This document shows, one piece after another, positions 9,513 through 57,600 of a DNA stretch of 64,000 nucleotides. A model generated the notes under the pieces. That model saw only the letters and a program-made list of their open reading frames with translations. It was not told where the DNA came from and did not search any database. Source of the stretch: Candidatus Deferrimicrobiaceae bacterium (lineage in GTDB: Bacteria > Desulfobacterota > Deferrimicrobia > Deferrimicrobiales > Deferrimicrobiaceae); the NCBI GenBank assembly GCA_963792415.1, contig CAWBVY010000009.1, forward strand, positions 32,001 through 96,000, read 5' to 3'. A program made the translations under genes and the position numbers. How positions within the stretch are numbered: the first letter of the stretch is position 1; each line of letters begins with the position of its first letter.

Positions 9513-11252
9513 ATGATCACCCGATACCTGCAGTCGCTGTTTCTGGCAGTCGCGGCGGCAACGATGGCGGCAACCGTCGCGCCCGCCGCGGGCCCGCCCC
9601 CGCTTGCGCTCGACTGGGCCACGGTGGTGAACAACACCGATGAGATGCCGGGCGCGTGTGTAAAAGGAATACGAACCTTCAACAGCTACAACCAGCCCTC
9701 GGTGAACGCGGCCGGGTTGGTCGTCATCCGGGCTCGCAGCACGGGCGGCCCGCCATGTGGGCCGGCCACCCACGGGATCTACACGCGCGACATGTCCGTG
9801 GACGGCAGCCCCATCGTCAGGATCCTGGACCGGACCACCCCGGTTCCGCATCCCAACAACTTATGCCACCAAATTCGTCGAGACCCCGTCCTTCCCGCGC
9901 ATCGACATCGGGTCGGACACCATCGCCACCCGCGGGAACCATCCGCCGGTGTGGAGATATGCTCCGGTACGAAGACGACTGAGACCCGGGCGGGGACCAC
10001 GGGCATCTACGCCAACCCGTTCGGCGATCTCATCACCGGCGCCTCCAAGCTCGGTGCCGTCCCCGAATTCGGCGACTTCTTCGAGGTCCCCGGCGCCGCC
10101 CCCTGGACCATGTTCGACGTGTTCCCCGGGTCGCCCTCGGTGACCAACGGCACGACCATCGTGTTCAAGGGGAACTACACGGTGGATGGCGTGGGCAAGA
10201 CCGGGGTGTTCTACCGCGACCTCGAAGATGGGGACCATGGCGGGTTCTCCCCCGTGAAGCTGATCGCCAACAACACGGACACCCTCATCCCCGGCACCAA
10301 GCACGCGTCTTCGGCTCCACCTCCCCGCCCAGCGCCGCCGGCGAGAAGGCCGTGTTCGCCGGCTTCGACAACGAGGAAAACCCCACCCTGGGCGGCCTCT
10401 ACCTGGCCGACCTCAAAAATCCGAAGAAACTCAAGACGCTCGTCAAGCATCGGCGAGAGGGTCCCCGGGGAGCCCGGCTACGATACCTTCAACCGCCTCG
10501 GGGAAGGCGTCGCGTTCGACGGTCGCTACGTGGGATTCTGGGGCGCCTGGGGGACGGAGACCAAGACCGTGCGCCTCTACTGCCCGACGGAAGGAAACAA
10601 GGACCGCATCGCTTATTGCAATCAAAAACTGATCTGCGACACGGGAATACGAGGAGACCGGGCCGCGTGGTCGAAAAAGACCCGAACAGAAATCTGCGAT
10701 GGCACGGCTGCTATCAGGAGAAGCAGGTCCCGGTGCGCCAGGGCATCTTCGTCCACGACACCGATAGAAAAGGGAATACGCGGATGGTGGCGAAGACCGG
10801 AGACGCCTTCGATGATTTCGTCTTCTGGAACTACTCCGGGCAAGCCCCCCTGCGTGGGCATACGGGGCCACGGACAGGAAGGCGCCGAGGACGACGGCGA
10901 GCCGGCGCGCTGGCGCTCCTCGTCGTTCGTCGCGGTTTCAACGGTTCTACACCGCCTTCAAGGCTTCTTCTGCAGGCCAGGTCGGGCAATCTACCTCAAA
11001 TCTGCAGCGATCCGGGACAGCATTCCTGGTCACCGTCCTGGACACGACCATGGACGGGACGACATCTCGACCCGGAGTATGCCGTCCGGAGGGATCCATA
11101 TCGAAAGATCACGGGAGGTGGGGCTCGAGCGCGAGGGGCTGCGCGGCGACTGGCTCGTCATCAACGCAAAGATGGGCATCGAAGGAGGCTCCGAGGAAGA
11201 AGGGATGGCCGGGATCTACGTGACCCGCGTGCCGATCACCCCGCCGCGCTAG
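9513..11252 (+). CDS. Secreted hypothetical protein, beta-propeller-like (frameshifted)
   Basis: Signal peptide; FNSYNQPSVN, FDVFPGSPSV, VFKGNY, GLEREGLRG motifs; alternate-frame pieces at 9757-10143 and 10352 onward. Confidence 0.7.
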   Translation: MITRYLQSLFLAVAAATMAATVAPAAGPPPLALDWATVVNNTDEMPGACVKGIRTFNSYNQPSVNAAGLVVIRARSTGGPPCGPATHGIYTRDMSVDGSPIVRILDRTTPVPHPNNLCHQIRRDPVLPAHRHRVGHHRHPREPSAGVEICSGTKTTETRAGTTGIYANPFGDLITGASKLGAVPEFGDFFEVPGAAPWTMFDVFPGSPSVTNGTTIVFKGNYTVDGVGKTGVFYRDLEDGDHGGFSPVKLIANNTDTLIPGTKHASSAPPPRPAPPARRPCSPASTTRKTPPWAASTWPTSKIRRNSRRSSSIGERVPGEPGYDTFNRLGEGVAFDGRYVGFWGAWGTETKTVRLYCPTEGNKDRIAYCNQKLICDTGIRGDRAAWSKKTRTEICDGTAAIRRSRSRCARASSSTTPIEKGIRGWWRRPETPSMISSSGTTPGKPPCVGIRGHGQEGAEDDGEPARWRSSSFVAVSTVLHRLQGFFCRPGRAIYLKSAAIRDSIPGHRPGHDHGRDDISTRSMPSGGIHIERSREVGLEREGLRGDWLVINAKMGIEGGSEEEGMAGIYVTRVPITPPR

Positions 11253-11275
11253 TACTGACGGGTTGCGCCCGGGCG
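11239..11275 (+). repeat. Direct repeat A, left copy
   Basis: CCCCGCCGCGCTAGT-N5-CGGGTTGCGCCCGGGCG; both blocks recur exactly at 12696-12732. Confidence 0.85.
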
Positions 11276-11321
11276 TGCGCGGCGCCACAAGATGACGCGA
11301 ACCTCCAAGCCAGGAGGAACC

Positions 11322-12658
11322 ATGAGAAGGGCCACTTTCTTCCCATTGCTTTCCTTGCTTCTTATATCCCTTCTGTCATCTTGTGGTGGTAGCGGAGGGG
11401 GAGGGGAATCGACCAGCAGCACCGGCGCAGCTCCCATCGCTACATCCGTTGCGGCCACGTCCATAACCGATAATAACGCCACCCTGAATGGCACCGTAAA
11501 TCCGAACGGCCTTGCCACCCAGGCATGGTTTGAATACGGCACGGATCCCGGTCTTCAGACATATTCAAGTTCTCCCAATCAGGATGCAGGAAATGGATTG
11601 ATTGCCCAATCGGTAAGTACGACCTTGAGCGTTTTGGCACCGGGAACGACTTACTACTTTCGGGTCTGTGCGGAAAACAGCGGGGGGTATTCAGAGGGGC
11701 AGGTCATGAGTTTTACAACTGCGTCTCCTGCCAGCCCTCCCGCGGTCACAACGATCGCAGCGACATCGGTCGGGGCGACGGGAGCAACGCTGAATGGGAG
11801 TGTAATCCCCAATGGTCTGGCAACCAATGCATGGTTCGAGTGGGGAACGGACTCGACTCTCGCCGGTTACAGTACAACGGTAACCCAAGCGGTGGGGTCG
11901 GGGACGACTTCTCAAACAATCCATCAGGCGCTGACCGGACTTGCCACCGGAACCATCTACTACTACCGTGTTGCAGCCAGCAACGGATCGGGGACCAGCA
12001 AAGGCGACATCCTGAGTTTTCCTCCCCCCCGGCGCAGCGCCGACGGTTACGACACTTGCGGCAACGTTGGTTGCGTCAACCAGTGCAACGCTTAACGGGA
12101 ATGTGAACCCGAACGGCCTGGCAACCGACGCATGGTTTGAGTGGGGAACCAACCCGAGCCTGGACACCTTCAGCACGACATATCCCAAGGCGCTGGAGGC
12201 CGGGACAAATATTCTGCCAGTGATGGCGACCCTGTCCGGATTGAGTTCCGTGACAACCTACTACTATCGTGTGGCCGCTTCCAACGCAACGGGATCAGCC
12301 GCCGGGTCGATTGCAAGTTTCACCACCGCATCTCTTCTCTCCTTTGGAGTTGTTTCCACAACTCCAACAAACAATGCAACGGAAGTCCCTTTAGGCAGTA
12401 CCATTACAGTTACCTTTAACCAGGATGTGGACGTTGCCACCCTTGTAGGCGCGATAACGGTTAGCAGTTTCCACCGGGGATCTTCCAGGAGTGATTTCGT
12501 ACAACTCCACGACGAAAACGGCGACGTTTACACCCGGCGCACCGTTTGCTCCTCTAACCGACTACACGGTGACGGTTGACGATAAAGTGAAATCCGACGA
12601 CGGTGTACGATTGCCCGCGCCGTATATATTTGGCTTTAAAACCGGTTCTGCTTTCTAG
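11322..12658 (+). CDS. Lipoprotein with three FN3-like repeats and a C-terminal Ig-like (Big_5/SbsA) domain (frameshifted)
   Basis: Lipobox LSSC-GG; three ATLNG.V.PNGLAT.AWFE.GT repeats; TPTNNATEVP..TITVTFN; ends ...FGFKTGSAF-TAG at 12658; visibly AT-richer than flanks. Confidence 0.8.
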
Positions 12659-12695
12659 GGAAAGGATTCCAATTTGGATAATTCCTGGCCGAAGG

Positions 12696-12768
12696 CCCCG
12701 CCGCGCTAGTCGTTTCGGGTTGCGCCCGGGCGCGCTGCGCCGCGAAGGCGGCCTGCCCGGGCGCAACC
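12696..12768 (+). repeat. Direct repeat A, right copy, with complete 14-bp hairpin
   Basis: GGTTGCGCCCGGGC (12718-12731) pairs with GCCCGGGCGCAACC (12755-12768). Confidence 0.85.
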
Positions 12769-22313: not shown

Positions 22314-22351
22314 CCCCCCGCGATTCCGGACACGTAAAGGAGGTTCATCCC

Positions 22352-30142: not shown

Positions 30143-30763
30143 TCAGCGCCGCTGAAACCAGTACCACGCGGAAGGGTTGCCGTTCTCTTCCCCGGTCGCC
30201 ATCCGGACGTTGTAGAACTCCGCCCGCAGCAAGGAGTCGACCTCTTCGGCGGCGATGCCGACAACCTCGCCTTCCCGTGTTCTCGGCAGCCAGGCGTAGA
30301 GCATGTACCAGGCTTGCGGCCGCAGCAATCGGGACAGGCTCGTGACGTATCGCGCCCGATCTTCCGCCTTCAGGGAATGCAGGCAGCCGATGTCCAGAAC
30401 GTAGTCGAAAGGACCGGACAGGGCGGAAAGGTCGGTGACGCTCGCAACAAGAAATTCGATCGCCACTCCGCTCCGGGCCGCCTTGGCGCGGGCGGCGAGG
30501 ATGGCTTTCGGTATGAAATCGACGCCCGTGACCCGCCATCCGTACCGGGCCAGGGTGACGGCATTGGTTCCCGTGCCGCAGCCCAGATCCAGCGCTTTTC
30601 CGGGCGGGGTCCGGGCGAGGAATTCCATCACCTCGGGCGGGGTGACTTGCGTGTCCCAGGGGGTCTTCCTGCGCCAGTAGCGCCATTGGAATTTCCAGCG
30701 GTTGGGCAGGATGGACCCGATCCGTTCGTGCCACAAGCCCGGAAACCCCCTTCCCTTCTCCAT
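30143..30763 (-). CDS. Class I SAM methyltransferase (TPMT/TehB-like)
   Basis: TPWD, ALDLGCGTG, FDYVLDIGCLH. Confidence 0.88.
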   Translation of the reverse strand: MEKGRGFPGLWHERIGSILPNRWKFQWRYWRRKTPWDTQVTPPEVMEFLARTPPGKALDLGCGTGTNAVTLARYGWRVTGVDFIPKAILAARAKAARSGVAIEFLVASVTDLSALSGPFDYVLDIGCLHSLKAEDRARYVTSLSRLLRPQAWYMLYAWLPRTREGEVVGIAAEEVDSLLRAEFYNVRMATGEENGNPSAWYWFQRR

Positions 30764-30765
30764 CG
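30708..30765 (+). repeat. Direct repeat B, left copy (5' end of methyltransferase)
   Basis: About 50 of 58 positions match 36270-36328 by manual alignment. Confidence 0.85.
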
Positions 30766-30849
30766 GTCGGACAGCGGCCTGCCCCCCGGTTTCAGACCCG
30801 TTCCACGCGGGGAGCTGCGAGGGATTTCCCCTTGCCCGTTTCCACCGGA

Positions 30850-31656
30850 TTACGCTTGATACAGGTGGACGTCCCGCTGCGGGAACGGGATGGAAATCCC
30901 CTCTGCGTCGAACCGCTTCTTGATCTTCTCGGTCGTTTCGAAGTAGACATCCCAGTAATCTTCCGTTTTGACCCAGGGACGAACGGCGAAGTTGACGCTG
31001 CTGTCCCCCAGCTCCAGAACGGCGATCGTCGGGGCCGGGTCCTTCAGGACGCGTTCATCACCGTTCAGAACGTCCGCGACAACGCCCTTCACTTTCCCGA
31101 TCTCGTCCCGATAGCTCACTCCGATGACGAGATCCACGCGACGTTTGTCTTTCCTCGTGTAATTGGTGACGTTGTCGCCGGTGATCTTCGCATTCGGAAT
31201 GATGATGGTCTTGTTGTCGGGCGTGCGCAGTTGCGTCGTGAAGATCTGCATCTCCTCCACGATGCCCGAGACGCCTGCGCCCTCGATGAAATCGCCGACC
31301 TGGAACGGACGGAATATGACCATCAGGACGCCGGCGGCGAAGTTCGCCAGCGACCCTTGCAGCGCCAATCCAATGGCCAGACCGGCCGCGCCGATCACGG
31401 CGATGAACGATGTCGTTTGAATCCCCAGTTGCGCGAGTGCCGCCAGAATCACGAACGTGAGGAGGGAAAAGTAGATCAGATGCCCGACGAAGGTCACGAG
31501 TGTCGCGTCGACCTTGCTGCTGGCCATCAATTTCCCGGTGGTGTTCCGGAGGAACCTCGCCACCCAACGTCCGACGACAACGATCAGGATCGCGGTGAGC
31601 ATATTGATGCCGAATGCCGCCACCCATGCCTGCATCTTCGCGACGATTTCTTCCAT
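30850..31656 (-). CDS. mscS: Small-conductance mechanosensitive channel
   Basis: GAAGLAIGLALQGSLANFAAG, RPFQVGD, IIPN, GISIPFPQ. Confidence 0.95.
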   Translation of the reverse strand: MEEIVAKMQAWVAAFGINMLTAILIVVVGRWVARFLRNTTGKLMASSKVDATLVTFVGHLIYFSLLTFVILAALAQLGIQTTSFIAVIGAAGLAIGLALQGSLANFAAGVLMVIFRPFQVGDFIEGAGVSGIVEEMQIFTTQLRTPDNKTIIIPNAKITGDNVTNYTRKDKRRVDLVIGVSYRDEIGKVKGVVADVLNGDERVLKDPAPTIAVLELGDSSVNFAVRPWVKTEDYWDVYFETTEKIKKRFDAEGISIPFPQRDVHLYQA

Positions 31657-31792
31657 TCCTCGACTCCTTTCTTTGGGGGAAAAGCCGAAAACGAGCACTT
31701 CTTCAACCGGCACCAGGGTCAGGGGGATCGCTGCATATTTCCCACTCCCTGCAACCACCCCCTGCACGGAACAGACCGTCGCCTGCTCCGTC

Positions 31793-32371: not shown

Positions 32372-32400
32372 TTTACTTGCGTGAACCGGCGCAGTATAAT
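32372..32400 (+). promoter_or_regulatory. Sigma70-like promoter
   Basis: TTTACT-N17-TATAAT in otherwise GC-rich DNA. Confidence 0.45.
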
Positions 32401-35089: not shown

Positions 35090-35192
35090 CCGCCCTCCCG
35101 CGGACGGGAAACAACCGGGGGGCACATCGCCGAATCAACGCATCGGCGATTCCATGCCCCCCGGCGTGCCCGATTCCCCCGTACTTGAGGCG

Positions 35193-35390
35193 TTACGCAG
35201 GCGGGCTTCCCGCCTTCATCCCCTTCCGGACCATGTCCTTGAACTCCGGAGTGATCTGGTACTTGTGCACCGTTTTCGCGTGCTGGATCACGGCCTCCAT
35301 CAGTTCCTCTTCGGTATCCGCCGAAACCGCCACGCTGCACTTCACCTCGCCGGGGTAGTCCCGGCAATCCAGGTATTTCCGTGCCATCAT
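35193..35390 (-). CDS. DUF1059 small metal-binding protein
   Basis: LDCRDYP...C...A.TEEEL......HA..VH; AGGAGG RBS. Confidence 0.85.
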   Translation of the reverse strand: MMARKYLDCRDYPGEVKCSVAVSADTEEELMEAVIQHAKTVHKYQITPEFKDMVRKGMKAGSPPA

Positions 35391-35494
35391 CGCACCTCCT
35401 TTTGGCAAGGGGGTTGTCTTACGAGGTTGCCGTCCGTATCGTATTCATGCGATGGCCTGCGCCCCGCGAACGATTCCCGATGGAAGGATTTCGT

Positions 35495-36271
35495 ATGGAC
35501 GACCTGATCCGCTCCCATCGCCGATGGCTCAAGGACTCGATCCGCAAGACCGTCGACTGGAGCGCCACGGGCCAATCGCGCGGCCTCCCGCCGCCACCGG
35601 TTCAGAAACCGATCCCCCCGGACGCGCGGACGGTCGCTCTCCCGGGGCCGGACCGGTTCGACTCGGTCTGCACCTCCGGCCTCCTCAGGGTCCTCCAAAA
35701 ACGCCGAAGCGTCCGCCGATTCGCCCAGGATCCTCTCTCCCTCAAAGAACTCGCATTTCTCCTCTGGGCCACCCAGGGGATCACGGGGCGCAGCGGCGAC
35801 GAGGCGACCTTCCGCCCGGTTCCATCCGCCGGCGCGCGGCACGCGTTCGAGACCTACCTCTACTGCCGGAGGGTCGATACGCTCGAGGAGGGGATCTACC
35901 GCTACCTGCCGGTGGAGCACCGCCTCCTCTTCGAGTTTACGGAACCCGGGCTGGCCGCCCGCATCTCCGAGGCCTGTCTCGGGCAACGGTTCGTCGGGCA
36001 GGGGGCCGTCACGTTCTTCTGGAGCGTCCTCCCGTACCGGATGGAGTGGCGGTACGGACCGGCCGCACACCGCGTCCTCCCGATGGACGCCGGCCACGTC
36101 TGCCAGAACCTGTACCTTTCCGCGGAAGCGATCGGGGCGGGGACGTGCGCGGTCGCGGCGTACGATCAGGAGGCCCTCGATGCCCTTCTCCACCTCGACG
36201 GGGAGGAGGAGTTCGTCCTCTACCTGGCGCCGGTCGGAAAGCACGCGACCTCCGGGAAAGGGGCCGGGTAG
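35495..36271 (+). CDS. SagB/ThcOx-family nitroreductase
   Basis: RRSVRRF, LLWATQG, RPVPSAGARH.FETY, DAGHVCQNLYL. Confidence 0.9.
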   Translation: MDDLIRSHRRWLKDSIRKTVDWSATGQSRGLPPPPVQKPIPPDARTVALPGPDRFDSVCTSGLLRVLQKRRSVRRFAQDPLSLKELAFLLWATQGITGRSGDEATFRPVPSAGARHAFETYLYCRRVDTLEEGIYRYLPVEHRLLFEFTEPGLAARISEACLGQRFVGQGAVTFFWSVLPYRMEWRYGPAAHRVLPMDAGHVCQNLYLSAEAIGAGTCAVAAYDQEALDALLHLDGEEEFVLYLAPVGKHATSGKGAG

Positions 36272-36328
36272 GATCGACCCGGCCCGTTCGTACCGCAAGC
36301 CCGGGAACCCCCTCCCCTTTTTCCATCG
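36270..36328 (+). repeat. Direct repeat B, right copy
   Basis: Diverged copy of 30708-30765 starting at the nitroreductase stop codon. Confidence 0.85.
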
Positions 36329-36458
36329 TCGAACACCCATCCCGGCGCAGCCACCGGGCGCGCCTTCTCCCGCAGGGTATCGGATTCCCTGCGGGATGGG
36401 AATGTGACACTTTTCCCGAATCCCGGGGGAATCCTCCGAATCTAATCGTCACACCCTG

Positions 36459-44051: not shown

Positions 44052-45734
<1,683 letters not shown>

Positions 45735-45841: not shown

Positions 45842-46393
45842 ATGAAACAATATCGAATTGCCGTTGTCGTAGGCAGTCTTCGCAAGGAGTCGTTCAACCG
45901 CAAGCTTGCCGACGCCGTCGCGAAGCTGGCGCCGCCCGATTTCTCGTTCCACCAGGTGCCGATCGGCGACCTGCCGCTCTACAACCAGGACGACGACGCG
46001 GGCCCGGCCGACGCCGTCAAGCGGCTGAAGAGCGAAATCACCGCTTCCCAGGGCCTCCTGTTCGTCACCGCCGAATACAACCGCTCGATCCCCGGGGTGC
46101 TCAAGAACGCGATCGACCACGCCTCGCGCCCGTACGGCCAGAGCGCCTGGGCTGGCAAGCCCGCCGGAGTGTTGGGGGTTTCGATCGGCCCCATCGGCAC
46201 ATCCCTGGCGCAGCAGCACCTGCGCAATGTCCTCTCGTACCTGGACGTACCGACGCTCGGCCAGCCCGAAGTGTTCCTGCAGGCCAAGGACGAACTGTTC
46301 GACGAGGCCGGCGACATCGGGCCGGCCAGCAGAAAATTCCTTCAGAACTGGATGGATCGGTATGTCGCCTGGGTGAAGAAGCACGCTGCCTGA
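45842..46393 (+). CDS. NADPH-dependent FMN/quinone reductase (ChrR/YieF family)
   Basis: VGSLRKESFN, EYNRSIPGVLKNAID, AQQHLR. Confidence 0.92.
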   Translation: MKQYRIAVVVGSLRKESFNRKLADAVAKLAPPDFSFHQVPIGDLPLYNQDDDAGPADAVKRLKSEITASQGLLFVTAEYNRSIPGVLKNAIDHASRPYGQSAWAGKPAGVLGVSIGPIGTSLAQQHLRNVLSYLDVPTLGQPEVFLQAKDELFDEAGDIGPASRKFLQNWMDRYVAWVKKHAA

Positions 46394-46452
46394 GGCGGCC
46401 CGGGGAAACGCTCCGAAGAACTCCGGTCCCCCGGGGGCGACCCGCACCCGGA

Positions 46453-46545
46453 ACGCATGGAGTTCCTCCCCCGGATCAGGAAGAAGATGGCGAAGGCGAC
46501 GATCAGGAAATTGACGACGGTGCCCACGAACATTCCTTCGTTGAA
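46453..46545 (-). pseudogene. mscL: Orphan mscL fragment (TM2 only)
   Basis: FNEGMFVGTVVNFLIVAFAIFFLIR..N matches MscL TM2 pattern YG.F...INFLI.AF.IF. Confidence 0.65.
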
Positions 46546-46590
46546 GGCTCCTCCCCCCCCCTCACGCGGAGGAAGGAGCCGGCCTGAGGG

Positions 46591-46872
46591 TTATTTCTTC
46601 TTCGTTTCCTTCGCCTTCGCGTCCTTGACCTCGATCGTGGCCGCGGTCATCCGGTATTCGATGGTGACCTTGGAGCCGACCTTGAGGTCCCCCGTGACCT
46701 TCGTGTCCTTGCCGCGGGCGATCTCCCACTTGTCCTTCCCCTTCTGCACGACGATCACGTCGTCCTTGAGCTCCAGGACGGGCCCGGTCACCTGATACGT
46801 GTTCGGCGGGCCGGCAACGGCGAGCGAGGCGACGAGCAGCAGTGCGCAAACGAACAGCAGCGTGCGCTTCAT
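46591..46872 (-). CDS. Small secreted OB-fold-like hypothetical protein
   Basis: Signal peptide; YQVTGPVLE...KWEIAR...LKVG.KVTIEY. Confidence 0.8.
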   Translation of the reverse strand: MKRTLLFVCALLLVASLAVAGPPNTYQVTGPVLELKDDVIVVQKGKDKWEIARGKDTKVTGDLKVGSKVTIEYRMTAATIEVKDAKAKETKKK

Positions 46873-47032
46873 CGGAATCCCTCCTTCGGGCATGCGGGGT
46901 GTGATCGATATAAGTAATTATAGTTTGGTTTTTCAACGCGTTGAAACGCATATTTCCGGTCGTCGCGGGTCGGCCGGTTCCCCGGCCGGATTCCCATCGG
47001 GCATTGCGGCGGTGCCGAAGGGGGGGCTCCTC

Positions 47033-51331: not shown

Positions 51332-51973
51332 ATGCGTGAAGTGATCGAGCCTTTCATCGAACACCAGGGCGAGAAACGCGGCTTCTGGCTCAGGAAGCCG
51401 CGGACCATCGGCGAAAAGCTGCTGCTCGCGAAGAAAGGCAGCCCCCTGCGGATTCCCGGTAAAACCGTGATCCTTCTCGATCCCCGGAGCGCGTTCGGCA
51501 CCGGCGGACACGGCACCACGGAAGGGTGCCTCGCCGCGCTCGAAAAGCGCATCAAGGGGGGCGAGACCGTTCTGGATGTCGGAACCGGTACGGGGATCCT
51601 CGCGATCGCGGCGAGTAAACTCGGGGCCGGTCGTGTCACCGCGATCGACATCGACCCGGTCGCCTGCGCGGAAGCCGTGAGGAACATCGCCTTGAACGGA
51701 ATCGGCGACGGGATCGACGTCATCGAGGGCGGGATCGAATCCGCGAAGGATCGATACGACGTCATCGTCGCGAACCTGAGGACTCCCCTCCTCGTCGACC
51801 TCATGGACAGGCTGACGGAACGCCTCGCCGGGCGCGAAGTGGCGATTTTCTCGGGAATCATGGAGATGGAGCTTCATCCCTTCCTGGCGTTCCTCGATGG
51901 GCGTTGCATGGAAACAGTCGAACTGGAGAGGATCGGCGGCTGGATGACGGTGGTCTCGAGAAAGAGACCGTAG
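51332..51973 (+). CDS. prmA: PrmA-like methyltransferase, short form
   Basis: DP..AFGTGGHGTT, LDVGTGTGILAIA, DIDP.A, YDVIVAN. Confidence 0.8.
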   Translation: MREVIEPFIEHQGEKRGFWLRKPRTIGEKLLLAKKGSPLRIPGKTVILLDPRSAFGTGGHGTTEGCLAALEKRIKGGETVLDVGTGTGILAIAASKLGAGRVTAIDIDPVACAEAVRNIALNGIGDGIDVIEGGIESAKDRYDVIVANLRTPLLVDLMDRLTERLAGREVAIFSGIMEMELHPFLAFLDGRCMETVELERIGGWMTVVSRKRP

Positions 51974-51975
51974 GA
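51929..51975 (+). repeat. Direct repeat D, left copy (3' end of prmA)
   Basis: 41 of 47 match to 55597-55643. Confidence 0.88.
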
Positions 51976-52016
51976 ATACCCTCTTCCGGGTTTTTTCCTC
52001 TCCGGCATTCCGAATT

Positions 52017-53270
52017 TCACAAAAGGCCGGCCGCGTGGGCGATGTTCCGGAGGATCTTCCACTCCTCGCCGATCCGCGTGCGGGCGGAGGCCCACGGGCT
52101 CGGGTCGATCTTCCGGGGCGACCGCCGGGCGCCCACGAGGGCCTCGTAGATCGCGAGCTGTTTCGAGGCGCTCCGCGGCATCGAGAATTCGCGGGCCGTC
52201 GCCTCCACCCCTTCGGCCAAGCGGCGCCGTTCCCCGGGATGCAGCTCCGCTACCCACCGGAGGGCCTCCCGGAAGGCTTCCGCATCGGGACGCGGGACGA
52301 GACGGCCGTTTACCCCGTCCCGCACCACCTCGCGCGCTCCCGGGGCATCGAGCGCCACCACCGGCACCCCGGCCGCCATCGCCTCCGTCAGCACCATCCC
52401 CTGCGTCTCCGTCAACGACGCGAAGGCGAAGACGTCCATCGCCTTGTAAGCGGAGGCGAGTTCGCTGCCTTGCAGCACCCCGCCGGCGTTGATCCGCCCT
52501 GACAGCCCGTGCCGATCGAAGGTTGCGAGAACCTCCCCCTTGGACGCCCCCTCCCCGATCAGGAGGAAACGCCCACTCGGGTACCTCACGAGGAAGCCCG
52601 CCACGGCCTCGGCGAGAAAGCCCATGTTCTTCTCCGGGGCCAGCCGTCCCACGTGGCCCACGACGAACGGGCGGTCCGGGATCCCCGCCGCCCTCCGGTA
52701 GGCGGAACCGTCCGCCCGGTCGAAGAGATCGAGGTCCACACCCGTCGGGATCACGGCGATGGGGGCCGTGACCCCCCTGCGGAGGAGGAGATCCTCGACC
52801 GTCTCGCTCGGCGCGATCACCGCGTCGCAAAGGTTGCAGTACCCGGTCGTGAGATCGATCACGAAACGTTTGAGCTGCGGGGAATCGCCGGGGACGTAAT
52901 GCGTGTATTGCTCGTACATCGTGTGGTGCGTGAACACCACCGGAAGATCCCGGGAGGCCGCGACCCGCAGGGCGGTGTCGCCCAGGAGAAACGGATGATG
53001 GGAGTGGACCACCTGGGGCAGAAACGCCTTCAGGGCCGCGGACACCCCCCGGGTGATCGGGACGGGCACGGCGAAGTCGCTCCCGTTGAAATGCTGCACC
53101 GCGGGCACGCGAACGACGTCCTGCTCCGTCCGGGGCGGCCCCTCGAACTCCGGGGCCACGACGAGGACACGGTGCCCGCTCTCGCGGAACGCTTCCGTGA
53201 ACCTCCGCACGCTGCCGGCCACCCCGCCCACGTGGGGAGTGAACGTGTTCGTAACCATCAGGATGTTCAC
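52017..53270 (-). CDS. GT4 glycosyltransferase (glucosyl-diacylglycerol synthase-like)
   Basis: TNTFTPHVGGV, HSHHPF, GRLAPEKN, ETQGMVL.EAMA; GTG start overlaps the upstream stop. Confidence 0.92.
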   Translation of the reverse strand: MNILMVTNTFTPHVGGVAGSVRRFTEAFRESGHRVLVVAPEFEGPPRTEQDVVRVPAVQHFNGSDFAVPVPITRGVSAALKAFLPQVVHSHHPFLLGDTALRVAASRDLPVVFTHHTMYEQYTHYVPGDSPQLKRFVIDLTTGYCNLCDAVIAPSETVEDLLLRRGVTAPIAVIPTGVDLDLFDRADGSAYRRAAGIPDRPFVVGHVGRLAPEKNMGFLAEAVAGFLVRYPSGRFLLIGEGASKGEVLATFDRHGLSGRINAGGVLQGSELASAYKAMDVFAFASLTETQGMVLTEAMAAGVPVVALDAPGAREVVRDGVNGRLVPRPDAEAFREALRWVAELHPGERRRLAEGVEATAREFSMPRSASKQLAIYEALVGARRSPRKIDPSPWASARTRIGEEWKILRNIAHAAGLL

Positions 53271-55525
53271 GGAGCGGCCTCGGGCTCGAGGAGCATCGAC
53301 CCCTGCCCGGCCGGCGCCTCGACCGCCGCGAAGCCCGGGAGTCTCGCCTCGACGCGAGGGGGGACTCCCCTCCAGGAGCCGCCCCAACGCACCTCCGCCC
53401 GGCGGCCCCTGCGCACGATTTCCACGCGAACCTCGCCGAACGAGGTGGGCGCGGGACCGAGCGAGATCGGGCCTTCCATCTCCAGCCACTCAGGGAGAAT
53501 TCCCGACGCAAGGACCAGCCGCTCCTCCTCCTCCCGGACGAACATGTTCCGGATCATGAGGACCCATTCGGCGGACGCCCACGCGTGCTGTCCATCTCCC
53601 ATGCACCCCCCCCCTGTTCGGGGGTGCACCGCCTCCGGCCATTGCCCCGTTGGAGACGCCAGGTTCGCCACGGTGCGGACCAGTTCCCGAAAACGCCCGT
53701 CCCCGGCGCGGAGCAGGACCTGCGCCATGTGCAGGGTCAGGTACGGGTTGATCCCGGAGTGGATGATGTCCTGGTAGAACCCACCGTTCACCATGCAGTG
53801 GGAGAGGAGAAACTCCGTCGTGTCGAGGAGACGCGCGTCGTGCGGAGCGAAGATCCGCAGCGGATACCCGGCGGCCAGGGAGCCCACGGCTCCGGAGTCC
53901 AGCCGCCTGTGCGGCGACGCGGGCATCCCGGGCCTCCCCAGGCGCAGGGCGACGCGGGAGAGGCTTTTCTCCACGGCTTCGCGGAACTGCCCCGCCTCCT
54001 CCCGGAACGAGGAGGGGTCCGCATCCCCATCCGCCGGAGGAAGCAGCCGGGACGCCGCGTGAAGACCCGCGATCCCCCAGAAATCGTCCCAGTAGTAGTA
54101 GTCGTTAGGGCCAAGATGCTCAGCGCTGAAGCCTGCCGGGAGGAGCCCCGCCTGCAGCTTTTCGTCGTCGGCCGGCAAACGGTTTCTTCGGATCCAGCGC
54201 GCCCCCCTCTCGATCGAGCGCCTCCATTCCGGTTTCGCCGGACGGCCGGTGAGTTCACAGTAGCGCATCAGGGTCCAAAGCGCTTCCCCGTTGGAGTCCC
54301 ACTCGCCATCCTGCGAGTAGTACAGACCGGTGCGGGTCTGCCGCCGCGGGAACGTATCCAGGACCCTTTCCGCCCGATCCGCGAGGCCGAGACAGAGGAG
54401 GGCGTGGAGAATGAAGGACGCGTCCCGGAACCAGAAGCGCTTGTACGTGTAGGGCCCGGGGTAGACCTCCCCCGCCTGCGTGTGAAGGACGAGGTTGCGG
54501 ACGGCCGCATCGAACAGCGACTGCATCCGCTGCCCCGGCAGCCGGAGGGCGGCGACTCCCGACAGGGCACGGTCCCAGCCCGGTGATCCCCGGGAAGAGG
54601 TGCGCGCGCGCTCCTTCCTCTCCGCGGGGACCCGCACCACCGCCTGCCGTTCCCCGCCCCCGCCGATCTCGTACAGCGCCGCCGCCGTGGCCATCCCCAC
54701 GGCGCAGCGTACGCCGTCCCGCGCGTCGCGATCGAGAAGACGGGTATAGACGTCTCCGTTGTGGTAATCCGAGAAGGCGCACCGGTCCGGCGCGGGGTCG
54801 AAGAGCACGGCGTGGCGGTGGCCCACCCTCCAGCCGGCGCCCTGTCCGTCCGCATGGACCTCCTCCACGATGCTCACCCCTTCAGGATTGTACGGGCGAA
54901 GGGCTACCACGAGGTACGCGTCCGACGCGCTCCCCGCCCGGAGGGAGAGGACGCACTCCGGCGAGCCCCCCCGTTCCTCCACGCTCGTGCGCGACAGAAG
55001 CTCCATACCGTCGCATGCGCTGCGGGTCACTACCGAGATGCTGTCTCCCAACTCGAGGTGCTGGTCGACGGCCTGCAGCTTGGAGGGGATGAGGCGGCGC
55101 CCGTCCCTGGCCACAACCCACACGTCGAGCGACCAGCCGTCCCAGAACGGCGTCACCAGGCCTCTCGGATCCACTATGGGAAGCCAGTCGCGGTCCGGCA
55201 CCCCGATCGCGGTCCAGTTGCGATGCGTCAGATTGACGTGGGTGATCGAGAAGGCCCGCGGAATGAAGGCGTCGTCCGCCGGGTCGTACTGGCGCTCCAC
55301 CCAGAAAGGCCAGATCCAGTCCAGGTTGTGCTGGATGGCGCCGGTGTTGAGAAGGCCCCTGGCGTGGAAAACCAGGCCCGCCCGGATCAGTTCAAGCGGC
55401 ACCTTCCCCTCGAGCGGCTGCGCGAAGCTCTCCAGGCGGGAGAGCACCTTCACCGGGTCGATGAGCCCCCGGGCCCGAGCGGCGCGGCTTACGAGAAGCT
55501 TCCAGGGAAACCATCGCAACCACAT
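53267..55525 (-). CDS. Six-hairpin (alpha/alpha)6 glycoside-hydrolase-like protein
   Basis: YKRFWFRDA, GEWDSNG, YYWDDFW, WPEAVHP, GDGQHAWA. Confidence 0.75.
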   Translation of the reverse strand: MWLRWFPWKLLVSRAARARGLIDPVKVLSRLESFAQPLEGKVPLELIRAGLVFHARGLLNTGAIQHNLDWIWPFWVERQYDPADDAFIPRAFSITHVNLTHRNWTAIGVPDRDWLPIVDPRGLVTPFWDGWSLDVWVVARDGRRLIPSKLQAVDQHLELGDSISVVTRSACDGMELLSRTSVEERGGSPECVLSLRAGSASDAYLVVALRPYNPEGVSIVEEVHADGQGAGWRVGHRHAVLFDPAPDRCAFSDYHNGDVYTRLLDRDARDGVRCAVGMATAAALYEIGGGGERQAVVRVPAERKERARTSSRGSPGWDRALSGVAALRLPGQRMQSLFDAAVRNLVLHTQAGEVYPGPYTYKRFWFRDASFILHALLCLGLADRAERVLDTFPRRQTRTGLYYSQDGEWDSNGEALWTLMRYCELTGRPAKPEWRRSIERGARWIRRNRLPADDEKLQAGLLPAGFSAEHLGPNDYYYWDDFWGIAGLHAASRLLPPADGDADPSSFREEAGQFREAVEKSLSRVALRLGRPGMPASPHRRLDSGAVGSLAAGYPLRIFAPHDARLLDTTEFLLSHCMVNGGFYQDIIHSGINPYLTLHMAQVLLRAGDGRFRELVRTVANLASPTGQWPEAVHPRTGGGCMGDGQHAWASAEWVLMIRNMFVREEEERLVLASGILPEWLEMEGPISLGPAPTSFGEVRVEIVRRGRRAEVRWGGSWRGVPPRVEARLPGFAAVEAPAGQGSMLLEPEAAP

Positions 55526-55596
55526 GGCGCACCCCCCGAACCTTCATTATATCGCGGGGGCCCGCAAGGGTCGGAGCATTCCCGGAGCGTATCGAA

Positions 55597-55643
55597 AGGA
55601 TCGGCGGCGGGATGACGGTGGTCTCGAGGAGGAGACTACAGGA
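55597..55643 (+). repeat. Direct repeat D, right copy
   Basis: Copy of the prmA tail; contains the stop codon of the convergent gene at 55636. Confidence 0.88.
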
Positions 55644-56013
55644 TGTACATTATCCTGATTTTTTCCTCGATCGAGACCCGGAGACCATGGTCCAGCCGGA
55701 GCACCTTTCGAACCGGCGGCAGATCGGGAATCACCCGGATCGAGAGAACGAGGATCCCCACCACCGAGAGGAACCCGAGAAGATTGAACGAGGCGTCGGC
55801 GTTCTCCCTCATCGGTTCGGATCGGACATAGTTCGGAGACGGTTTCGGAAGCTGCAAGGTCCCCATCACGTACGCACCCTGCCACATCAACCGCTCGGCA
55901 GGCACCGAGAATAGCACGCACCCATAGATCACCAGGAGGGCGGCGGCCACCACGGCTCTCCTGATAAAACTCTTCCTCTCGGCTTCGGCGTCGGGATCCA
56001 CGGTTTTCTCCAT
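55636..56013 (-). CDS. Hypothetical membrane protein
   Basis: GGAGG before ATG 56013; two hydrophobic segments. Confidence 0.55.
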   Translation of the reverse strand: MEKTVDPDAEAERKSFIRRAVVAAALLVIYGCVLFSVPAERLMWQGAYVMGTLQLPKPSPNYVRSEPMRENADASFNLLGFLSVVGILVLSIRVIPDLPPVRKVLRLDHGLRVSIEEKIRIMYIL

Positions 56014-56070
56014 TTCCTCCCGGATATGCGACGGTTCTCCCATATTAGAGCGCTGTCCGACGAAAAAAGT

Positions 56071-56802
56071 TCAACCGCCAGGAAGAATCCGGCCCCCCGA
56101 AGCGAGGCAACCGCGCACCTTCTCCGCCAGGTCGGGGATATCCGCTTCCGTCTTTTCGCGAACATCGAGCGGCGGAAATACTTCGATGGAAATCACCCCT
56201 TTATGAAAGTGCCCCGATCCGCCGGGGGGGCAGACCTGCCGGGCGCCCTCGATCCGGACGGGGACGATCGGGAGACCCGCCTGGATCGCAAGGTGAAAAC
56301 CCCCCTTCTTCAGCGGGAGGAGTCTTCCGTCGTGGCTGACCCACCCTTCCGGGAAGATCATGATGGAGTTGTTCCCGGAGAGCCCCGAGATCGATCCGCC
56401 AATGGACGCCCTGGCCTGCTCCGTGTTCTCGCGGTCCACCATGATCTGGCCGAGGGACAGCAGCGCCCAACCGAATACGGGGATCCGGGCAAGTTCCTTC
56501 TTGAATACGCAGTGGAACGGCTGGGGGATGGCGATCGCCAATGCGAGAGGATCCGCGATGGAAGTGTGGTTCGCCATGAAGACGTATGGGCGTTGCGGAT
56601 CGATCTGTTCGAGCCCTCGCGGGACGACGCGCACCCGGAAGCCGGTAAACAGGACCCTGGAGTAGGTTTTCGCCAGCGGGCGGAAAAGACGCCCTTTACC
56701 GGTCAACCCCTTCCGGAAGAAACCGAGAAGGGTGAAGGGAGGCAGGAGGATGAGCGTGACCAGGCCGACGAATATCCACTGGAATATCGTCGTCGCTCTC
56801 AA
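56071..56802 (-). CDS. plsC: 1-acyl-sn-glycerol-3-phosphate acyltransferase
   Basis: NHTSIAD, KKEL..IP.FGW, FPEG, KKGGF. Confidence 0.9.
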   Translation of the reverse strand: MRATTIFQWIFVGLVTLILLPPFTLLGFFRKGLTGKGRLFRPLAKTYSRVLFTGFRVRVVPRGLEQIDPQRPYVFMANHTSIADPLALAIAIPQPFHCVFKKELARIPVFGWALLSLGQIMVDRENTEQARASIGGSISGLSGNNSIMIFPEGWVSHDGRLLPLKKGGFHLAIQAGLPIVPVRIEGARQVCPPGGSGHFHKGVISIEVFPPLDVREKTEADIPDLAEKVRGCLASGGRILPGG

Positions 56803-56841
56803 CGGGCGGGAATCCCCGGATCCACGGTTATCTCTCCCACC

Positions 56842-57600
56842 TCACTGCATCGGCCGGATCCGCACTTCGGTCTCCTTCTGACTCCGGAGGAGTTCGACGA
56901 TCCTGCCGGTGTCGGTCTCGCCGAAATGGTACGGATAAAGGATCTTCGGGCGGAGCATGCGGGCGGCGTCGGCCGCCATCTCCGGGGTCATGGTATACGG
57001 GAGATTCATCGGAAGGAACGCGATGTCGACCCCGGCGAGTGCTTTCATCTCGGGGATGTTCTCCGTGTCGCCGGCCACGTAGACCCTCTTGTCCCCAAAG
57101 GTGAGCACGTAGCCGTTGCCGCGCCCCTTCGGGTGAAAGGGGACCCCGGGGCTGCGCTCGTGGACGAGATTATAGGCCGGGACGGCGAGCACCGGGATGC
57201 CGGGAGAATTCTTCCGGGCGCCGGGGAACACCTTCCGATCACCGTTCTTCAGGACCACGGCGCCGGGAATCTTTTCGGCGGCGGCCGGGTTCGCCGCCAC
57301 CACGGTCCGGTCGCCCCGGATGGACTGGATCGCCCCCAGGTCGAGATGATCGCCGTGTTCGTGGGTAACGATAAGGATGTCGGCCTTGGGGAGGGAACCG
57401 TAGTCAGCGACCTTGCCGTAGGGGTCGATGGCGATGGTCGTGCCGTCGAAGGAGAAGAGGAGGCTCCCGTGGCCCAGGAAGGTCACGGTGAGGTCGCCGG
57501 CCCCCGTCGGGATGATGTCGGTTTCGTGCGGTTCTTTCCCGAAAGCCGTTCCCGCCAGCAGGGTCGCGAGGAACAGAATTGCGAAATGCGATCCCTTCAT
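56842..57600 (-). CDS. MBL-fold metallo-hydrolase
   Basis: GHGS, IDP, THEHGDH, YVAGDT, PYH. Confidence 0.9.
   Translation of the reverse strand: MKGSHFAILFLATLLAGTAFGKEPHETDIIPTGAGDLTVTFLGHGSLLFSFDGTTIAIDPYGKVADYGSLPKADILIVTHEHGDHLDLGAIQSIRGDRTVVAANPAAAEKIPGAVVLKNGDRKVFPGARKNSPGIPVLAVPAYNLVHERSPGVPFHPKGRGNGYVLTFGDKRVYVAGDTENIPEMKALAGVDIAFLPMNLPYTMTPEMAADAARMLRPKILYPYHFGETDTGRIVELLRSQKETEVRIRPMQ

Follow-up and report, generated by a model that had tools for sequence, protein, structure and literature searches.

Four pairs of short, diverged direct repeats (A to D) on a chromosomal stretch of a Candidatus Deferrimicrobium MAG, from an uncultured sediment bacterium, are scars of gene-block insertion or rearrangement beside the end of a resident gene, a recognisable type of footprint in which no enzyme is visible. 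The pairs lie within a 64,000-nt stretch of DNA, hereafter the window, from a 2.84-Mb genome of 11 contigs with GC contents of 0.596-0.672, which we compared with 27 other genomes of the genus and, when searching for a donor of the insert at D, with 70 genomes of the family. On present evidence, the region is a clear example of known scar types rather than a new system.

Results

Direct-repeat pairs in the window

Each of the pairs A to D is a local direct repeat with exactly two copies in a BLAST search of the whole 2.84-Mb genome, the next-best matches being no longer than 20 nt. The genome-wide self-comparison suggested in the preliminary description thus shows that these are not many-copy sequences, and its statement that the pairs are unrelated to one another in sequence is consistent with both the repeat listing and BLAST. 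The real 48-kb region contains 5 direct pairs of at least 40 bits within 10 kb, namely C (85.7), D (56.0), B (44.1), A (42.1) and an internal fn3 domain repeat (42.1), whereas none of 40 Markov-2 shuffles of this region reaches 40 bits (maximum 38.2). Throughout the genome, short repeats 1-10 kb apart on the same contig are direct in 76 cases and inverted in 25, compared with 60 and 57, respectively, for those more than 200 kb apart; this direct excess at short range, absent at long range, was counted in favour of reading the pairs as recombination scars. Five bracketing pairs had originally been proposed, but the match in the fifth, E, is only 17 nt long (26.3 bits, E = 0.49 by BLAST), below the usual shuffle maximum, and in a relative without the gene between E1 and E2 the break is not at E; given this chance-level score and the breakpoint elsewhere, we rejected E as a junction repeat. 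The further proposal that one copy of each pair is part of a working gene and the other intergenic applies to B, C and D but not to A, both copies of which are intergenic.

Table 1. Coordinates of the repeats, resident genes and intervening DNA in the window
Feature	Position	Strand	Description and basis
A1	11231..11278		14 nt 5' of lipoprotein gene ATG (11292); left palindrome arm only
A cargo	11292..12657	+	single fn3/Big_5 lipoprotein gene (Pfam, three-frame translation)
A2	12688..12735		~31 nt past lipoprotein stop; palindrome complete here
Resident gene of B	30146..30763	-	TPMT-like SAM methyltransferase (Pfam Methyltransf_25 4.7e-21, TPMT 7.4e-15)
B1	30700..30775		methyltransferase start codon, first ~19 codons and ~12 nt upstream
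DNA between B1 and B2	30776..36261		the six genes below (Pfam and synteny)
MscS channel	30853-31767	-	between B1 and B2
SpoIIAA-like	31796-32155	-	between B1 and B2
Usp	32657-33331	+	between B1 and B2
MFS	33469-34812	+	between B1 and B2
DUF1059	35196-35408	-	between B1 and B2
Nitroreductase	35381-36271	+	between B1 and B2
B2 and ~30 nt	36262..36370		ancestral methyltransferase 5' end with upstream region, displaced and decayed
Resident gene of C	44055..45716	-	malic enzyme, intact (Pfam)
C1	44759..44821		inside NAD-binding domain of malic enzyme
Gene fragments	46345..46889		MscL-like 3' piece and a block ~270-280 nt longer in relatives
C2	47033..47095		63-nt malic-enzyme copy at gene-loss junction
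Resident gene of D	51332..51973	+	PrmA-like methyltransferase (Pfam PrmA 8.5e-46)
D1	51926..52000		final 45 nt of PrmA-like gene, stop codon, diverged copy of gene X 3' end
D cargo	52001..55593	-	GT4 glycosyltransferase and glycosidase-like protein
GT4 glycosyltransferase	52020-53489	-	D cargo
752-aa glycosidase-like protein	53270-55525	-	D cargo
D2	55594..55668		ancestral PrmA-like 3' end (relic without stop codon) joined to true gene X 3' end
Gene X, 135 aa	55639..56043	-	no Pfam family; coding-like GC3
E1	55994..56020		chance match to E2 (56818-56844)

An insertion at the 3' end of a PrmA-like gene

Pair D marks a true 3.7-kb insertion at the 3' end of the PrmA-like methyltransferase gene. 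The two copies are 79% identical over 75 nt and 97% identical within a 32-nt core, with 15 of the 16 mismatches falling in the 43 positions outside it. Gene X is convergent with the PrmA-like gene, and in relatives the stop codons of the two abut. In G018 and G017 only one repeat copy is present, and the PrmA-like gene continues through it directly into the D2 flank: the PrmA match (77-720) and the D2 flank (678-1163) overlap by 43 nt at the empty site of G018 (L027/L046), and the PrmA match (2452-3114) overlaps the D2 flank (3060-3149) at that of G017 (L045). G014 and L028 are also devoid of the D cargo. The D2-type tail is common to G018, G017, G011 and G010; the D1 tail, in which the copy of the gene X end has its own hairpin and T-run, occurs only in the source genome. 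The cargo block (52027-55556/55571) has no flanking repeats in other genomes, being an ordinary chromosomal operon in all five checked; in the source genome it is single-copy, with no second copy elsewhere, and the C-terminus of the GT4 protein is cut at the left D junction. The donor order for D, with the PrmA-like gene adjoining the GT4 block, was not found in any of the 70 family genomes searched. The identity profile of the PrmA-like gene against G018 is flat (84-96%, no step), a comparison of little power over only 650 nt.

The junctions were checked in Logan contigs from metagenome runs, 20 of which, from 14 studies, hold the D region. The transition from the PrmA-like gene through D1 into the cargo is bridged with zero other letters by X5 record 22 (51876-52765) and X1 record 4, as is that from the cargo into D2 by X1 record 7 (54597-55669), and X9 records 29 (51931-53785) and 31 (54651-55629) differ at 7 and 9 letters, respectively. 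The sole joint seen in the contigs, 51959 to 55745 in run X1, comes from the allele of a relative that co-occurs there, not from a repeat-to-repeat excision. An assembly artefact or chimeric MAG, a concern raised in the preliminary description, is a highly improbable source of the repeats: the 11 contigs do differ in GC and several genes are frameshifted, but contigs from runs of different studies, one of which may be the source of the MAG itself, independently bridge both D junctions, and no artefact is apparent.

Pairs B, A and C

Pair B follows the logic of D at a 5' end, B2 being what is left of the ancestral start of the methyltransferase gene and the DNA upstream of it, now displaced. 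The copies (30708-30757 and 36270-36319) are 86% identical over 50 nt by pairwise alignment and BLAST. The outer flank of B1 is non-ancestral; B2 and its flank match the methyltransferase upstream region in four relatives (G013, G018, G010 and G014) for ~30 nt past the point at which B1 diverges, which marks B2 as the ancestral end. It is located in a 150-nt spacer, with the nitroreductase block on one side and the next block on the other, and all six genes between B1 and B2 occur in different contexts in relatives, as judged by synteny. The neighbours of the methyltransferase gene vary among relatives, its start being followed by the GT4/glycosidase block in G011, and the exact donor order for B was not seen.

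The copies of A, 83% identical over 48 nt, enclose one lipoprotein gene with two frameshifts, read in three frames, and with ~300-nt domain repeats. The second arm of a perfect 14-nt inverted repeat follows A2 and is missing at A1. Pair A sits in a strain-specific region, and no DNA homologous to the 8.5-13 kb segment was detected in the other 27 genomes of the genus.

Pair C (92% identity over 63 nt) is set apart from D and B: its cargo is ancestral, and C2 is a junction patch rather than an insertion bracket. In relatives, too, an FMN reductase gene separates the malic enzyme gene from the ABC operon, so that nothing was inserted between C1 and C2 and C was rejected as a cargo insertion. Of a 197-aa membrane gene that G011, G014 and G005 possess, only the first ~25 nt survive at the C2 junction; Logan contig X5 record 18 spans 46493-47086 with no other letters and one gap. 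C2 would be a by-product of block turnover, a piece of the nearby malic enzyme gene left in, or patched into, a deletion junction. Single-copy empty sites in relatives, the check proposed for all pairs, were thus obtained for D and not for C, where nothing is inserted, for E, a chance match, or for A and B, for which the 27 other genus genomes contain none.

The same signature elsewhere in the genome

Three further protein-gene-end pairs in the source genome (L052, L053 and L054) each have clean single-copy empty sites in relatives, and at these loci, as at D, the cargo is missing from the neighbourhood in the empty-site genomes. The duplication at L052 spans the abutting ends of two convergent genes, as at D, so that both genes stay intact. 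The L053 repeat ends in the loop of a palindrome with 10-nt arms, of which copy 1 has the left arm only and copy 2 is complete; both copies share derived states relative to all 7 single-copy genomes, and the 7-nt string CTGAAGG is found at the repeat start and again at the first bases of the cargo. No integrase was detected in the L052-L054 cargo (Pfam; ORFs of at least 90 aa with GC3 of at least 0.70). The phosphoketolase/phosphoglucomutase site is a hot spot at which cargo and relic boundaries differ across species: five species have relic copies that start 62, 57, 47, 46 and 30 nt ahead of the stop, the cargo-side flanks have nothing in common, and the 46 ORFs of 7 other cargo variants in relatives include no recombinase. 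The varying relic starts may reflect erosion of one old relic.

Eight tRNA loci of the same genome carry the classical duplication of part of a tRNA, namely Leu-gag (at least 4 relic copies), Thr-cgt (two loci), Ala-ggc, Arg-cct (43 nt, 100%), Arg-acg, Arg-tct and Arg-tcg. Tyrosine-recombinase remains lie between the repeats at two of these (a fragment at C1:188111, and C6:568239), and no integrase remains were found between the repeats at the other six. One tRNA islet contains plain metabolic genes (phosphoribosyltransferase, adenine deaminase and Thi4), another an HTH_17 excisionase-like ORF.

Searches for recombinases and recombination sites

Pfam searches of 131 ORFs of at least 150 aa and 107 ORFs of 55-149 aa at 8.5-59.5 kb revealed no integrase, transposase or resolvase, and a six-frame search with PF00589 yielded 7 matches in the genome and none in the window, which confirms the reported lack of a recombinase there. 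The genome contains no resolvase (PF00239), no DDE_Tnp_1 match, 2 rve matches and no Ku. The protein-gene-end cargoes examined, both in this genome and in relatives, likewise yielded no recombinase. No inverted pair joins the cargo ends of A, B or D, and an Rfam search gave no family at gathering score. An IS or transposon was rejected, given that there are no transposase and no terminal inverted repeats at the A, B and D cargo, as was an integron cassette array, given the absence of an Rfam match and of an integrase, the unrelated repeats and the presence of genes on both strands. Nevertheless, to conclude from the missing integrase that no integrase made these structures would be a weak argument, because 6 of the 8 classical tRNA loci are also devoid of integrase remains.

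Discussion

We tentatively favour, at somewhat less than even confidence, recombination, homology-facilitated or illegitimate, with selection preserving intact genes. A stretch of the Deferrimicrobium chromosome would thereby be rebuilt gene block by gene block between species, and the pairs would be scars of this process, not parts of a machine. At B and D, and probably at A, a block of ordinary genes would have entered a resident gene a few dozen bases short of its end, such that this gene keeps a complete end beside its body, whereas its original end, together with the old flank, now lies beyond the new block and decays. The incoming DNA would derive from a relative with a different gene order, through homologous recombination in the shared gene on one side and an illegitimate join just inside the gene end on the other or, alternatively, through an equivalent illegitimate insertion with target duplication. 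Selection would keep only those events that leave both flanking genes intact, which would force a duplication where convergent genes abut, and, with long repeats being removed by homologous recombination, only short, diverged repeats of ~40-110 nt would persist.

In both B and D, the gene body is collinear with relatives, and the copy that remains on the gene has a non-ancestral outer flank; these borders, one collinear and one a non-homologous join, match homology-facilitated illegitimate recombination. The same blocks occur in other orders in relatives (G014:C234, G005:C106, G011:C15 and G010:C8), and given that gene order differs so strongly between species, donors with another neighbour beside the shared gene exist. 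Illegitimate junctions and relics are common in the genus, as illustrated by a Zn-peptidase relic with a 580-nt internal deletion in G011, a PrmA-like relic fused to a lactamase-fold gene in G009, a 47-nt malic relic in G002 and a 73-nt nitroreductase relic in G010. Furthermore, the varied relic starts and unrelated flanks at the hot spot are what independent illegitimate joins predict and a misfit with one integrase site. Also in favour are the absence of recombinase genes, the lack of terminal inverted repeats at the A, B and D cargo ends, and, at D and L052, duplications that leave both convergent genes intact. Several observations count against the recombination reading, however: no donor order for D was found among the 70 family genomes; the shared derived states of the L053 copies are more readily explained by in-place duplication than by a donor and a recipient, except in the case of a very close donor; the absence of Ku lends no support to an end-joining route; and the D pattern of a 97% core with mismatches outside is also typical of att sites. 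The clustering of relic lengths at 30-110 nt would, in this model, be explained by the repeat-stability argument alone. The original proposal of a gene-acquisition route that duplicates ~25-60 bp of arbitrary target is retained with respect to recurrent gain accompanied by duplication, here of ~40-110 nt, whereas the idea of an arbitrary target is not: duplication affects a gene end, in many cases where two convergent genes abut or at a hairpin.

The modules might instead be degenerate integrative islets, a possible though doubtful origin in which a tyrosine recombinase acted on an attP carrying a replacement gene end, yielding attL and attR, and the integrase was later deleted or worked in trans. 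The tRNA loci, only 2 of 8 with recombinase remains, suggest that integrase loss is usual here, and the islets with metabolic genes and with the excisionase-like ORF fit such a history, as do the location of repeats at gene ends with the gene kept intact, the repeated use of one site and the D core, which is followed by a diverged but apparently functional replacement end with a stop codon and a predicted terminator hairpin. Yet no integrase was detected in the cargo of A, B or D, in the scanned ORFs of L052-L054 or in the 7 other hot-spot variants; the hot-spot repeat boundaries differ between species, with no conserved arm-like sequence; and, since the sites share no motif, each would need its own integrase, with only 7 PF00589 matches available. 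The GT4/glycosidase block, moreover, is an operon without flanking repeats in 5/5 genomes, and L053 copy 1 lacks the second palindrome arm, unlike a recombinase core site. A route that works without a recombinase, or with one in trans, and that inserts DNA of operon size where gene ends bear hairpins while duplicating 40-110 nt of resident target in place, is in our view unlikely; template switching at stalled forks, capturing foreign or ectopic DNA, may be a candidate for such a route.

In FoSTeS/MMBIR-like events, a fork stalls at a hairpin and the nascent strand copies other DNA, returning tens of bases behind its exit. That replicative template switching of this kind produced the pairs, each as a templated insertion flanked by an in-place duplication, is quite unlikely. 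The L053 repeat ending in a palindrome loop, with derived states common to both copies and CTGAAGG at the repeat and cargo starts, points in this direction, and so do the L053-like architecture of pair A and the resemblance of C2 to a short templated patch with junction microhomology TCCTCGG; against this, the cargo is single-copy in the source genome, which would require a foreign or subsequently lost template, microhomologies of 3-7 nt are weak evidence at 64% GC, and there is no hairpin at the B junction. We regard as improbable the alternative, already mentioned in the preliminary description, that a segment was duplicated in tandem and one copy was then mostly deleted or replaced. The order [46456-46889 block]-[MFS]-[34788-35100]-[malic enzyme] in G005:C106, in the same orientation as in the source genome, where the arrangement is [block]-[143 nt]-[C2], would allow C2 to be the last remnant of a second such segment, and deletional relics are common in the genus. 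However, the cargo of D and L052-L054 is absent nearby in the empty-site genomes, hence there was no local neighbour to duplicate, and several steps would be needed per locus.

In this region, single- or few-gene modules are reshuffled with short direct repeats at the borders, as in integron cassettes and IS; unlike integron cassettes, there is no shared attC-like element and no IntI, and genes lie on both strands, and unlike IS and transposons, which produce target-site duplications of 2-14 nt, there are no transposase and no terminal inverted repeats, and the repeats measure 37-110 nt. Integrase att duplications overlap gene ends, as in tRNA-targeting islands and in e14 and phage 21, which integrate in icd and leave a displaced icd end, and cis-mobilizable elements lack an integrase of their own. 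As in att duplications, direct repeats flank the insert, a replacement end keeps the target intact, the displaced end decays on the far side, relatives have single-copy empty sites and the integrase can be missing. What sets the present loci apart is that the protein-gene-end cargoes examined yielded neither an integrase nor a remnant of one, that the repeats at the single hot spot studied have different limits in different species, and that the cargo consists of one to six ordinary chromosomal genes. In the parts of the literature available to us, T6SS effector-immunity arrays of Vibrio cholerae and orphan 3' regions of Rhs/CDI loci are attributed to homology-facilitated illegitimate recombination with displaced orphan ends (PMC5361080, PMC3240628). 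There too, within the accounts given, incoming modules gain their foothold in the conserved portion of a gene and move the old end downstream, where it persists as a remnant; integrases play no part, and arrays grow through successive events at one locus (PMC5361080, PMC3240628). Whereas these accounts concern one family of polymorphic toxins, the genes that serve as anchors here are spread over many loci, are unrelated to each other and have housekeeping or accessory roles; the relics, moreover, span just 30-110 nt. Chromosomal hot spots of horizontal transfer without mobile-element genes (PMC5635113) and the tycheposons of Prochlorococcus (10.1101/2020.12.28.424599), as far as these sources were available, likewise combine variable accessory genes between conserved flanks, turnover among close relatives and many sites without a recombinase. 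In the hot-spot model as available there, genes are exchanged by homologous recombination on both flanks, which does not duplicate a gene end, so that the duplicated ends are an extra feature here.

Most horizontally gained bacterial genes sit in hot spots without mobile-element genes, and their route of arrival is largely inferred. The footprints are unusually legible in this lineage of a widespread sediment bacterium, as indicated by the 20 runs and 14 studies with the D region: the duplicated end displays the join site, the ancestral copy and relatives with the empty site. Whether the repeats were identical at birth would distinguish among three ways of gaining genes, by an integrase, by illegitimate recombination or by replicative switching. 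If true, a recombinase-independent or in-trans route would account for many integrase-less, repeat-flanked islets and for the block-wise reshuffling of genes between species.

Repeat pairs A to D are real

Genes in the window were placed by combining open reading frames, Pfam matches and third-position GC content; a codon-score gene caller was dropped, having chosen antisense shadows in this 64% GC DNA. A repeat search of the window returned pairs A, C and D at the positions originally described, and both pairwise alignment and BLAST returned B. Each of the four occurs twice, and no more, across the genome (2.84 Mb in 11 contigs, covered except for 72,000 bases of contig C6). In the actual 48-kb sequence, five direct pairs of at least 40 bits occur within 10 kb, namely C, D, B, A and an internal fn3 domain repeat, whereas none of 40 Markov-2 shuffles of the region gave a pair of at least 40 bits (maximum 38.2). 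Thus, A to D stand as genuine pairs. By contrast, pair E, presented as a weaker fifth example, is a chance match (17 nt, 26.3 bits, E = 0.49). It was rejected as a junction repeat because its score is that of noise and the breakpoints in relatives do not fall at E: homology to relative G011, in which the acyltransferase between E1 and E2 is missing, reaches 56095 and restarts at 56840, and G010 has a different gene in its place. Neither a tRNA nor an Rfam family was found within the window.

Positions and context of the features discussed (bare coordinates refer to the window, which is C9:32001-96000; others are prefixed by contig or genome)
Feature	Position	Description
A1		14 nt upstream of the ATG of the fn3/Big_5 lipoprotein gene
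A2		about 31 nt past the stop of the same gene
Lipoprotein gene	11292-12657	fn3/Big_5; split over three frames
Methyltransferase	13090-13461	truncated, without N-terminal half
Di-haem cytochrome c peroxidase	22304-23735	split, two ORFs
Inverted repeat	25857-25980 / 33215-33338	124 nt, 88% identity, between two universal-stress-protein paralogues
B1		(-) strand; from the TPMT-like methyltransferase gene: start codon, about 19 codons, about 12 nt of upstream DNA
B2		within the 150-nt spacer past the nitroreductase gene
GT2/GtrA gene	37396-38526	split, two overlapping ORFs
Stretch preceding C2	46345-46889	gene fragments between FMN reductase and C2: an MscL-like 3' piece and a further block
MscL-like 3' piece, second copy	C10:36164-36252	89 nt
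PrmA-like gene	51332-51973	methyltransferase
D1		last 45 nt of the PrmA-like gene and about 30 nt past its stop
D cargo	52027-55556/55571	GT4 glycosyltransferase and 752-aa protein
D2		3668 nt to the right of D1
Gene X	55639-56043	(-) strand; 135-aa ORF
Empty D site, G018 (contig also L027)	77-720; 678-1163	PrmA-like gene; D2 flank
Empty D site, G017	2452-3114; 3060-3149	PrmA-like gene; D2 flank
L052	C4:88500-97200	repeat: last 62 nt of phosphoketolase and end of convergent phosphoglucomutase
L053		repeat: last 25 nt of sigma-54 response regulator and 45 nt; cargo: TRAP transporter and malonyl-CoA decarboxylase
L054		repeat: Na/H-exchanger end; cargo: DUF2254 gene
L056	C9:111379-111450 and 121225-121296	72-nt stretch, 96% identity, 9.8 kb apart
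tRNA-Leu(gag) array	C1:300400-305000	at least 4 partial copies in 4.6 kb
tRNA-Arg(tcg) array	C9:130600-140030	several copies of about 45 nt across 9 kb
Tyrosine-recombinase fragment and 145-nt repeats	C9:3272-12368	fragment of 28 bits; 29 kb upstream of the window

An insertion at the 3' end of a PrmA-like gene

The duplication in pair D covers the ends of both the PrmA-like gene and gene X, and neither gene is broken. In alignment A12, the two genes converge with abutting stop codons (CTATAG in G017), which makes the D2 tail the genuine 3' end of gene X. This tail is almost identical among the studied genome, G011, G010 and G018, and D1 holds a diverged copy; D2 is the ancestral end and D1 the new end. 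Within the repeat, a 32-nt core is 97% identical, and 15 of the 16 mismatches fall in the other 43 positions.

The relatives compared are metagenome-assembled genomes, many of them fragmented. The search for empty sites with a single repeat copy was successful for D: in G018, the PrmA-like gene and the D2 flank overlap by 43 nt, which amounts to one repeat copy and no cargo, and the two likewise overlap in G017. G014 and locus L028 also are without the D cargo. A block related to this cargo (65-85% identity) was detected in 24 further genomes among 70 family genomes searched, representing 6 of 14 genera and always at other locations, and none of the five other genomes checked has repeats flanking it. 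The left join truncates the C-terminus of the GT4 protein relative to G010 and G011. The 752-aa protein has no Pfam match and, by eye, looks like an (alpha/alpha)6 glycosidase. The identity profile along the PrmA-like gene, used as a donor-tract test, is flat, with no step.

The arrangement recurs in Logan contigs from different studies. The path from the PrmA-like gene through D1 into the cargo is bridged with zero differing letters in metagenome runs X5 (record 22) and X1 (record 4), as is the cargo-D2 junction in X1 (record 7); the X9 contig records over D have 7 and 9 differing letters. Run X1 additionally carries an empty allele of the G014 type, from a relative present in the same run. 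Between 44000 and 58000, X1 depth is about 6 on the D cargo versus 30-45 on the flanks, which are rich in differing letters, so that empty-site relatives appear more abundant than this strain in that sediment. Among the contig joints listed, none runs repeat to repeat, which has no bearing on excision given that contigs drop rare variants.

Pairs B, A and C

Pair B follows the same logic as D, mirrored onto a 5' end. In alignment A9, the match to the DNA upstream of the methyltransferase in G013, G018, G010 and G014 covers B2 plus 30 nt on its right and extends past the point where B1 diverges; hence B2, which carries about 9 private substitutions, is the displaced ancestral 5' end, and the methyltransferase now has a new upstream flank. 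A search of the 27 other genus genomes turned up no clean empty site for B. Given that B2 comes after the nitroreductase stop codon and that its sequence is the complement of the methyltransferase start, encoded on the other strand, intergenic copies were also considered as antisense or 3'-UTR regulators, an idea set aside because the hairpins differ between copies and B2 is accounted for as the ancestral end. The L056 repeat, outside the window, comprises a ribosome-binding site, ATG and two codons before two unrelated genes, a MacB-type ABC transporter gene and a 4HBT thioesterase gene; it is a duplicated 5' end resembling pair B.

Pair A surrounds a single lipoprotein gene, readable only across three reading frames. 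At A2, a perfect 14-nt inverted repeat is completed by a second arm beyond the copy; A1 has the first arm alone. Between 8.5 and 13 kb, third-position GC is lowered, and DNA homologues in the genus are limited to distant fn3 repeats. The split and truncated genes of the window are either pseudogenes or products of assembly indel errors.

Pair C had been counted among the cargo brackets. In G011, G014 and G005, however, the gene order is malic enzyme, FMN reductase, small membrane gene and ABC operon, so that the supposed cargo between C1 and C2 is ancestral. The small membrane gene, in G011 a 197-aa ORF beginning at the ATPase stop, is reduced in the studied genome to its first ~25 nt, after which the sequence switches at a short shared string into a 63-nt malic-enzyme match (C2; 92% identical to the resident malic-enzyme gene and 82-89% to those of relatives) and then into unrelated DNA and gene fragments. 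In G005 (contig C106), the block corresponding to 46456-46889, an MFS gene and the malic enzyme gene are in the same order and orientation, and C2 may thus be all that is left of a second such segment, or else a templated patch; under either origin, C does not bracket an insertion. Among the gene fragments preceding C2, one block has ~270-280 additional nt in G002, G005 and G018.

Gene-end repeats elsewhere in the genome

Self-comparison of the genome, proposed as a check, uncovered many local short repeats, with 76 direct versus 25 inverted at 1-10 kb, and 60 versus 57 beyond 200 kb. An approximate by-eye tally of short low-copy local pairs gave about 15 direct versus about 4 inverted. All 3 further protein-gene-end pairs examined in relatives (L053, L052 and L054) display the D pattern, so that the footprint is recurrent. 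At L053, the flanks overlap on one contig in 17 genus genomes and the cargo is common only to G005 and G014; the two copies share derived states relative to 7 single-copy genomes, and the repeat terminates within a palindrome loop. L054 has a clean empty site in G018.

A hot spot lies where the phosphoketolase and phosphoglucomutase genes converge (L052). The site is empty in G004, G034 and G036 and holds other cargo, each with its own relic copies of the gene end, in G038, G016 and G002; G006 has a relic there without a closely related phosphoketolase (best match 74%), and relic start positions vary by species. The cargo consists of HerA-like ATPase/DUF4398/OmpA genes in the studied genome, TauE/DUF1634/ankyrin/formamidase in G038, DUF4143 ATPase/ECF sigma in G016, a PIN-Phd toxin-antitoxin in G002 and G007, DUF6600 in G017 and a Vgb-lyase-like gene in G033 (relatives' loci L062-L070). 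No recombinase was found among 46 cargo ORFs from 7 species.

Classical partial-tRNA duplication occurs at 8 tRNA loci, with tyrosine-recombinase remains between the repeats at only 2. The second copy of the C7 pair 214139/217640 was initially taken for a Thi4 3' end, an assignment rejected when ARAGORN identified tRNA-Arg(tct). The tRNA-Leu(gag) and tRNA-Arg(tcg) arrays, with no PF00589 match inside either, look like tandem small att-flanked islets. The tyrosine-recombinase fragment on C9 adjoins a 145-nt repeat present in three direct copies (3553, 7273 and 12223; 88-90%). A single tyrosine recombinase of the genome, in the region C6:365801-366322 (172 bits), looks clearly unlike Xer. The genome contains two rve matches and no resolvase, DDE_Tnp_1 or Ku, and no terminal inverted repeats were found at cargo ends.

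Block reshuffling and the origin of the footprint

From ~30 to 58 kb, the window is built of the same gene-sized blocks as G014:C234, G005:C106, G011:C15 and G010:C8, in different orders (MFS, methyltransferase, nitroreductase, PF0610-like, aldo-keto reductase, malic enzyme, FMN reductase and GT4/glycosidase), often separated by spacers of <100 nt. Deleted genes have often left short relics in these genomes, including those of a Zn-peptidase (G011), PrmA-like (G009), malic-enzyme (G002) and nitroreductase (G010) gene. No source for the spacers beside C2, B2, D2 and D1, or for the DNA flanking A, turned up in other parts of the genome or among the relatives' loci compared.

The preliminary description treated the five pairs as one phenomenon. 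The recurrent footprint is real but the pairs are not equivalent: D and B are insertions beside a gene end with that end duplicated, A is probably another, C is a junction remnant and E is noise. Systems for comparison include e14/icd, cis-mobilizable elements and MMBIR. A displaced-end model is described for Vibrio cholerae T6SS arrays (PMC5361080), and hot spots without mobile elements are described in another report (PMC5635113).

A D-type footprint is obtainable by two known processes. The repeated use of one site, the structure of D as a core with a replacement end, and the tRNA loci that this genome also carries all speak for islets of integrase origin that have since lost the integrase, an origin we consider rather unlikely. 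Template switching at hairpins, suggested by L053 and A, is distinctly improbable. Instead, we tentatively favor recombination, given that relic boundaries vary, conserved arms are lacking, no cargo examined encodes a recombinase, the cargo consists of ordinary chromosomal genes, and illegitimate junctions are abundant. Under this scenario, the D-type footprint may have arisen when relatives differing in gene order recombined, by an illegitimate or a homology-facilitated route.
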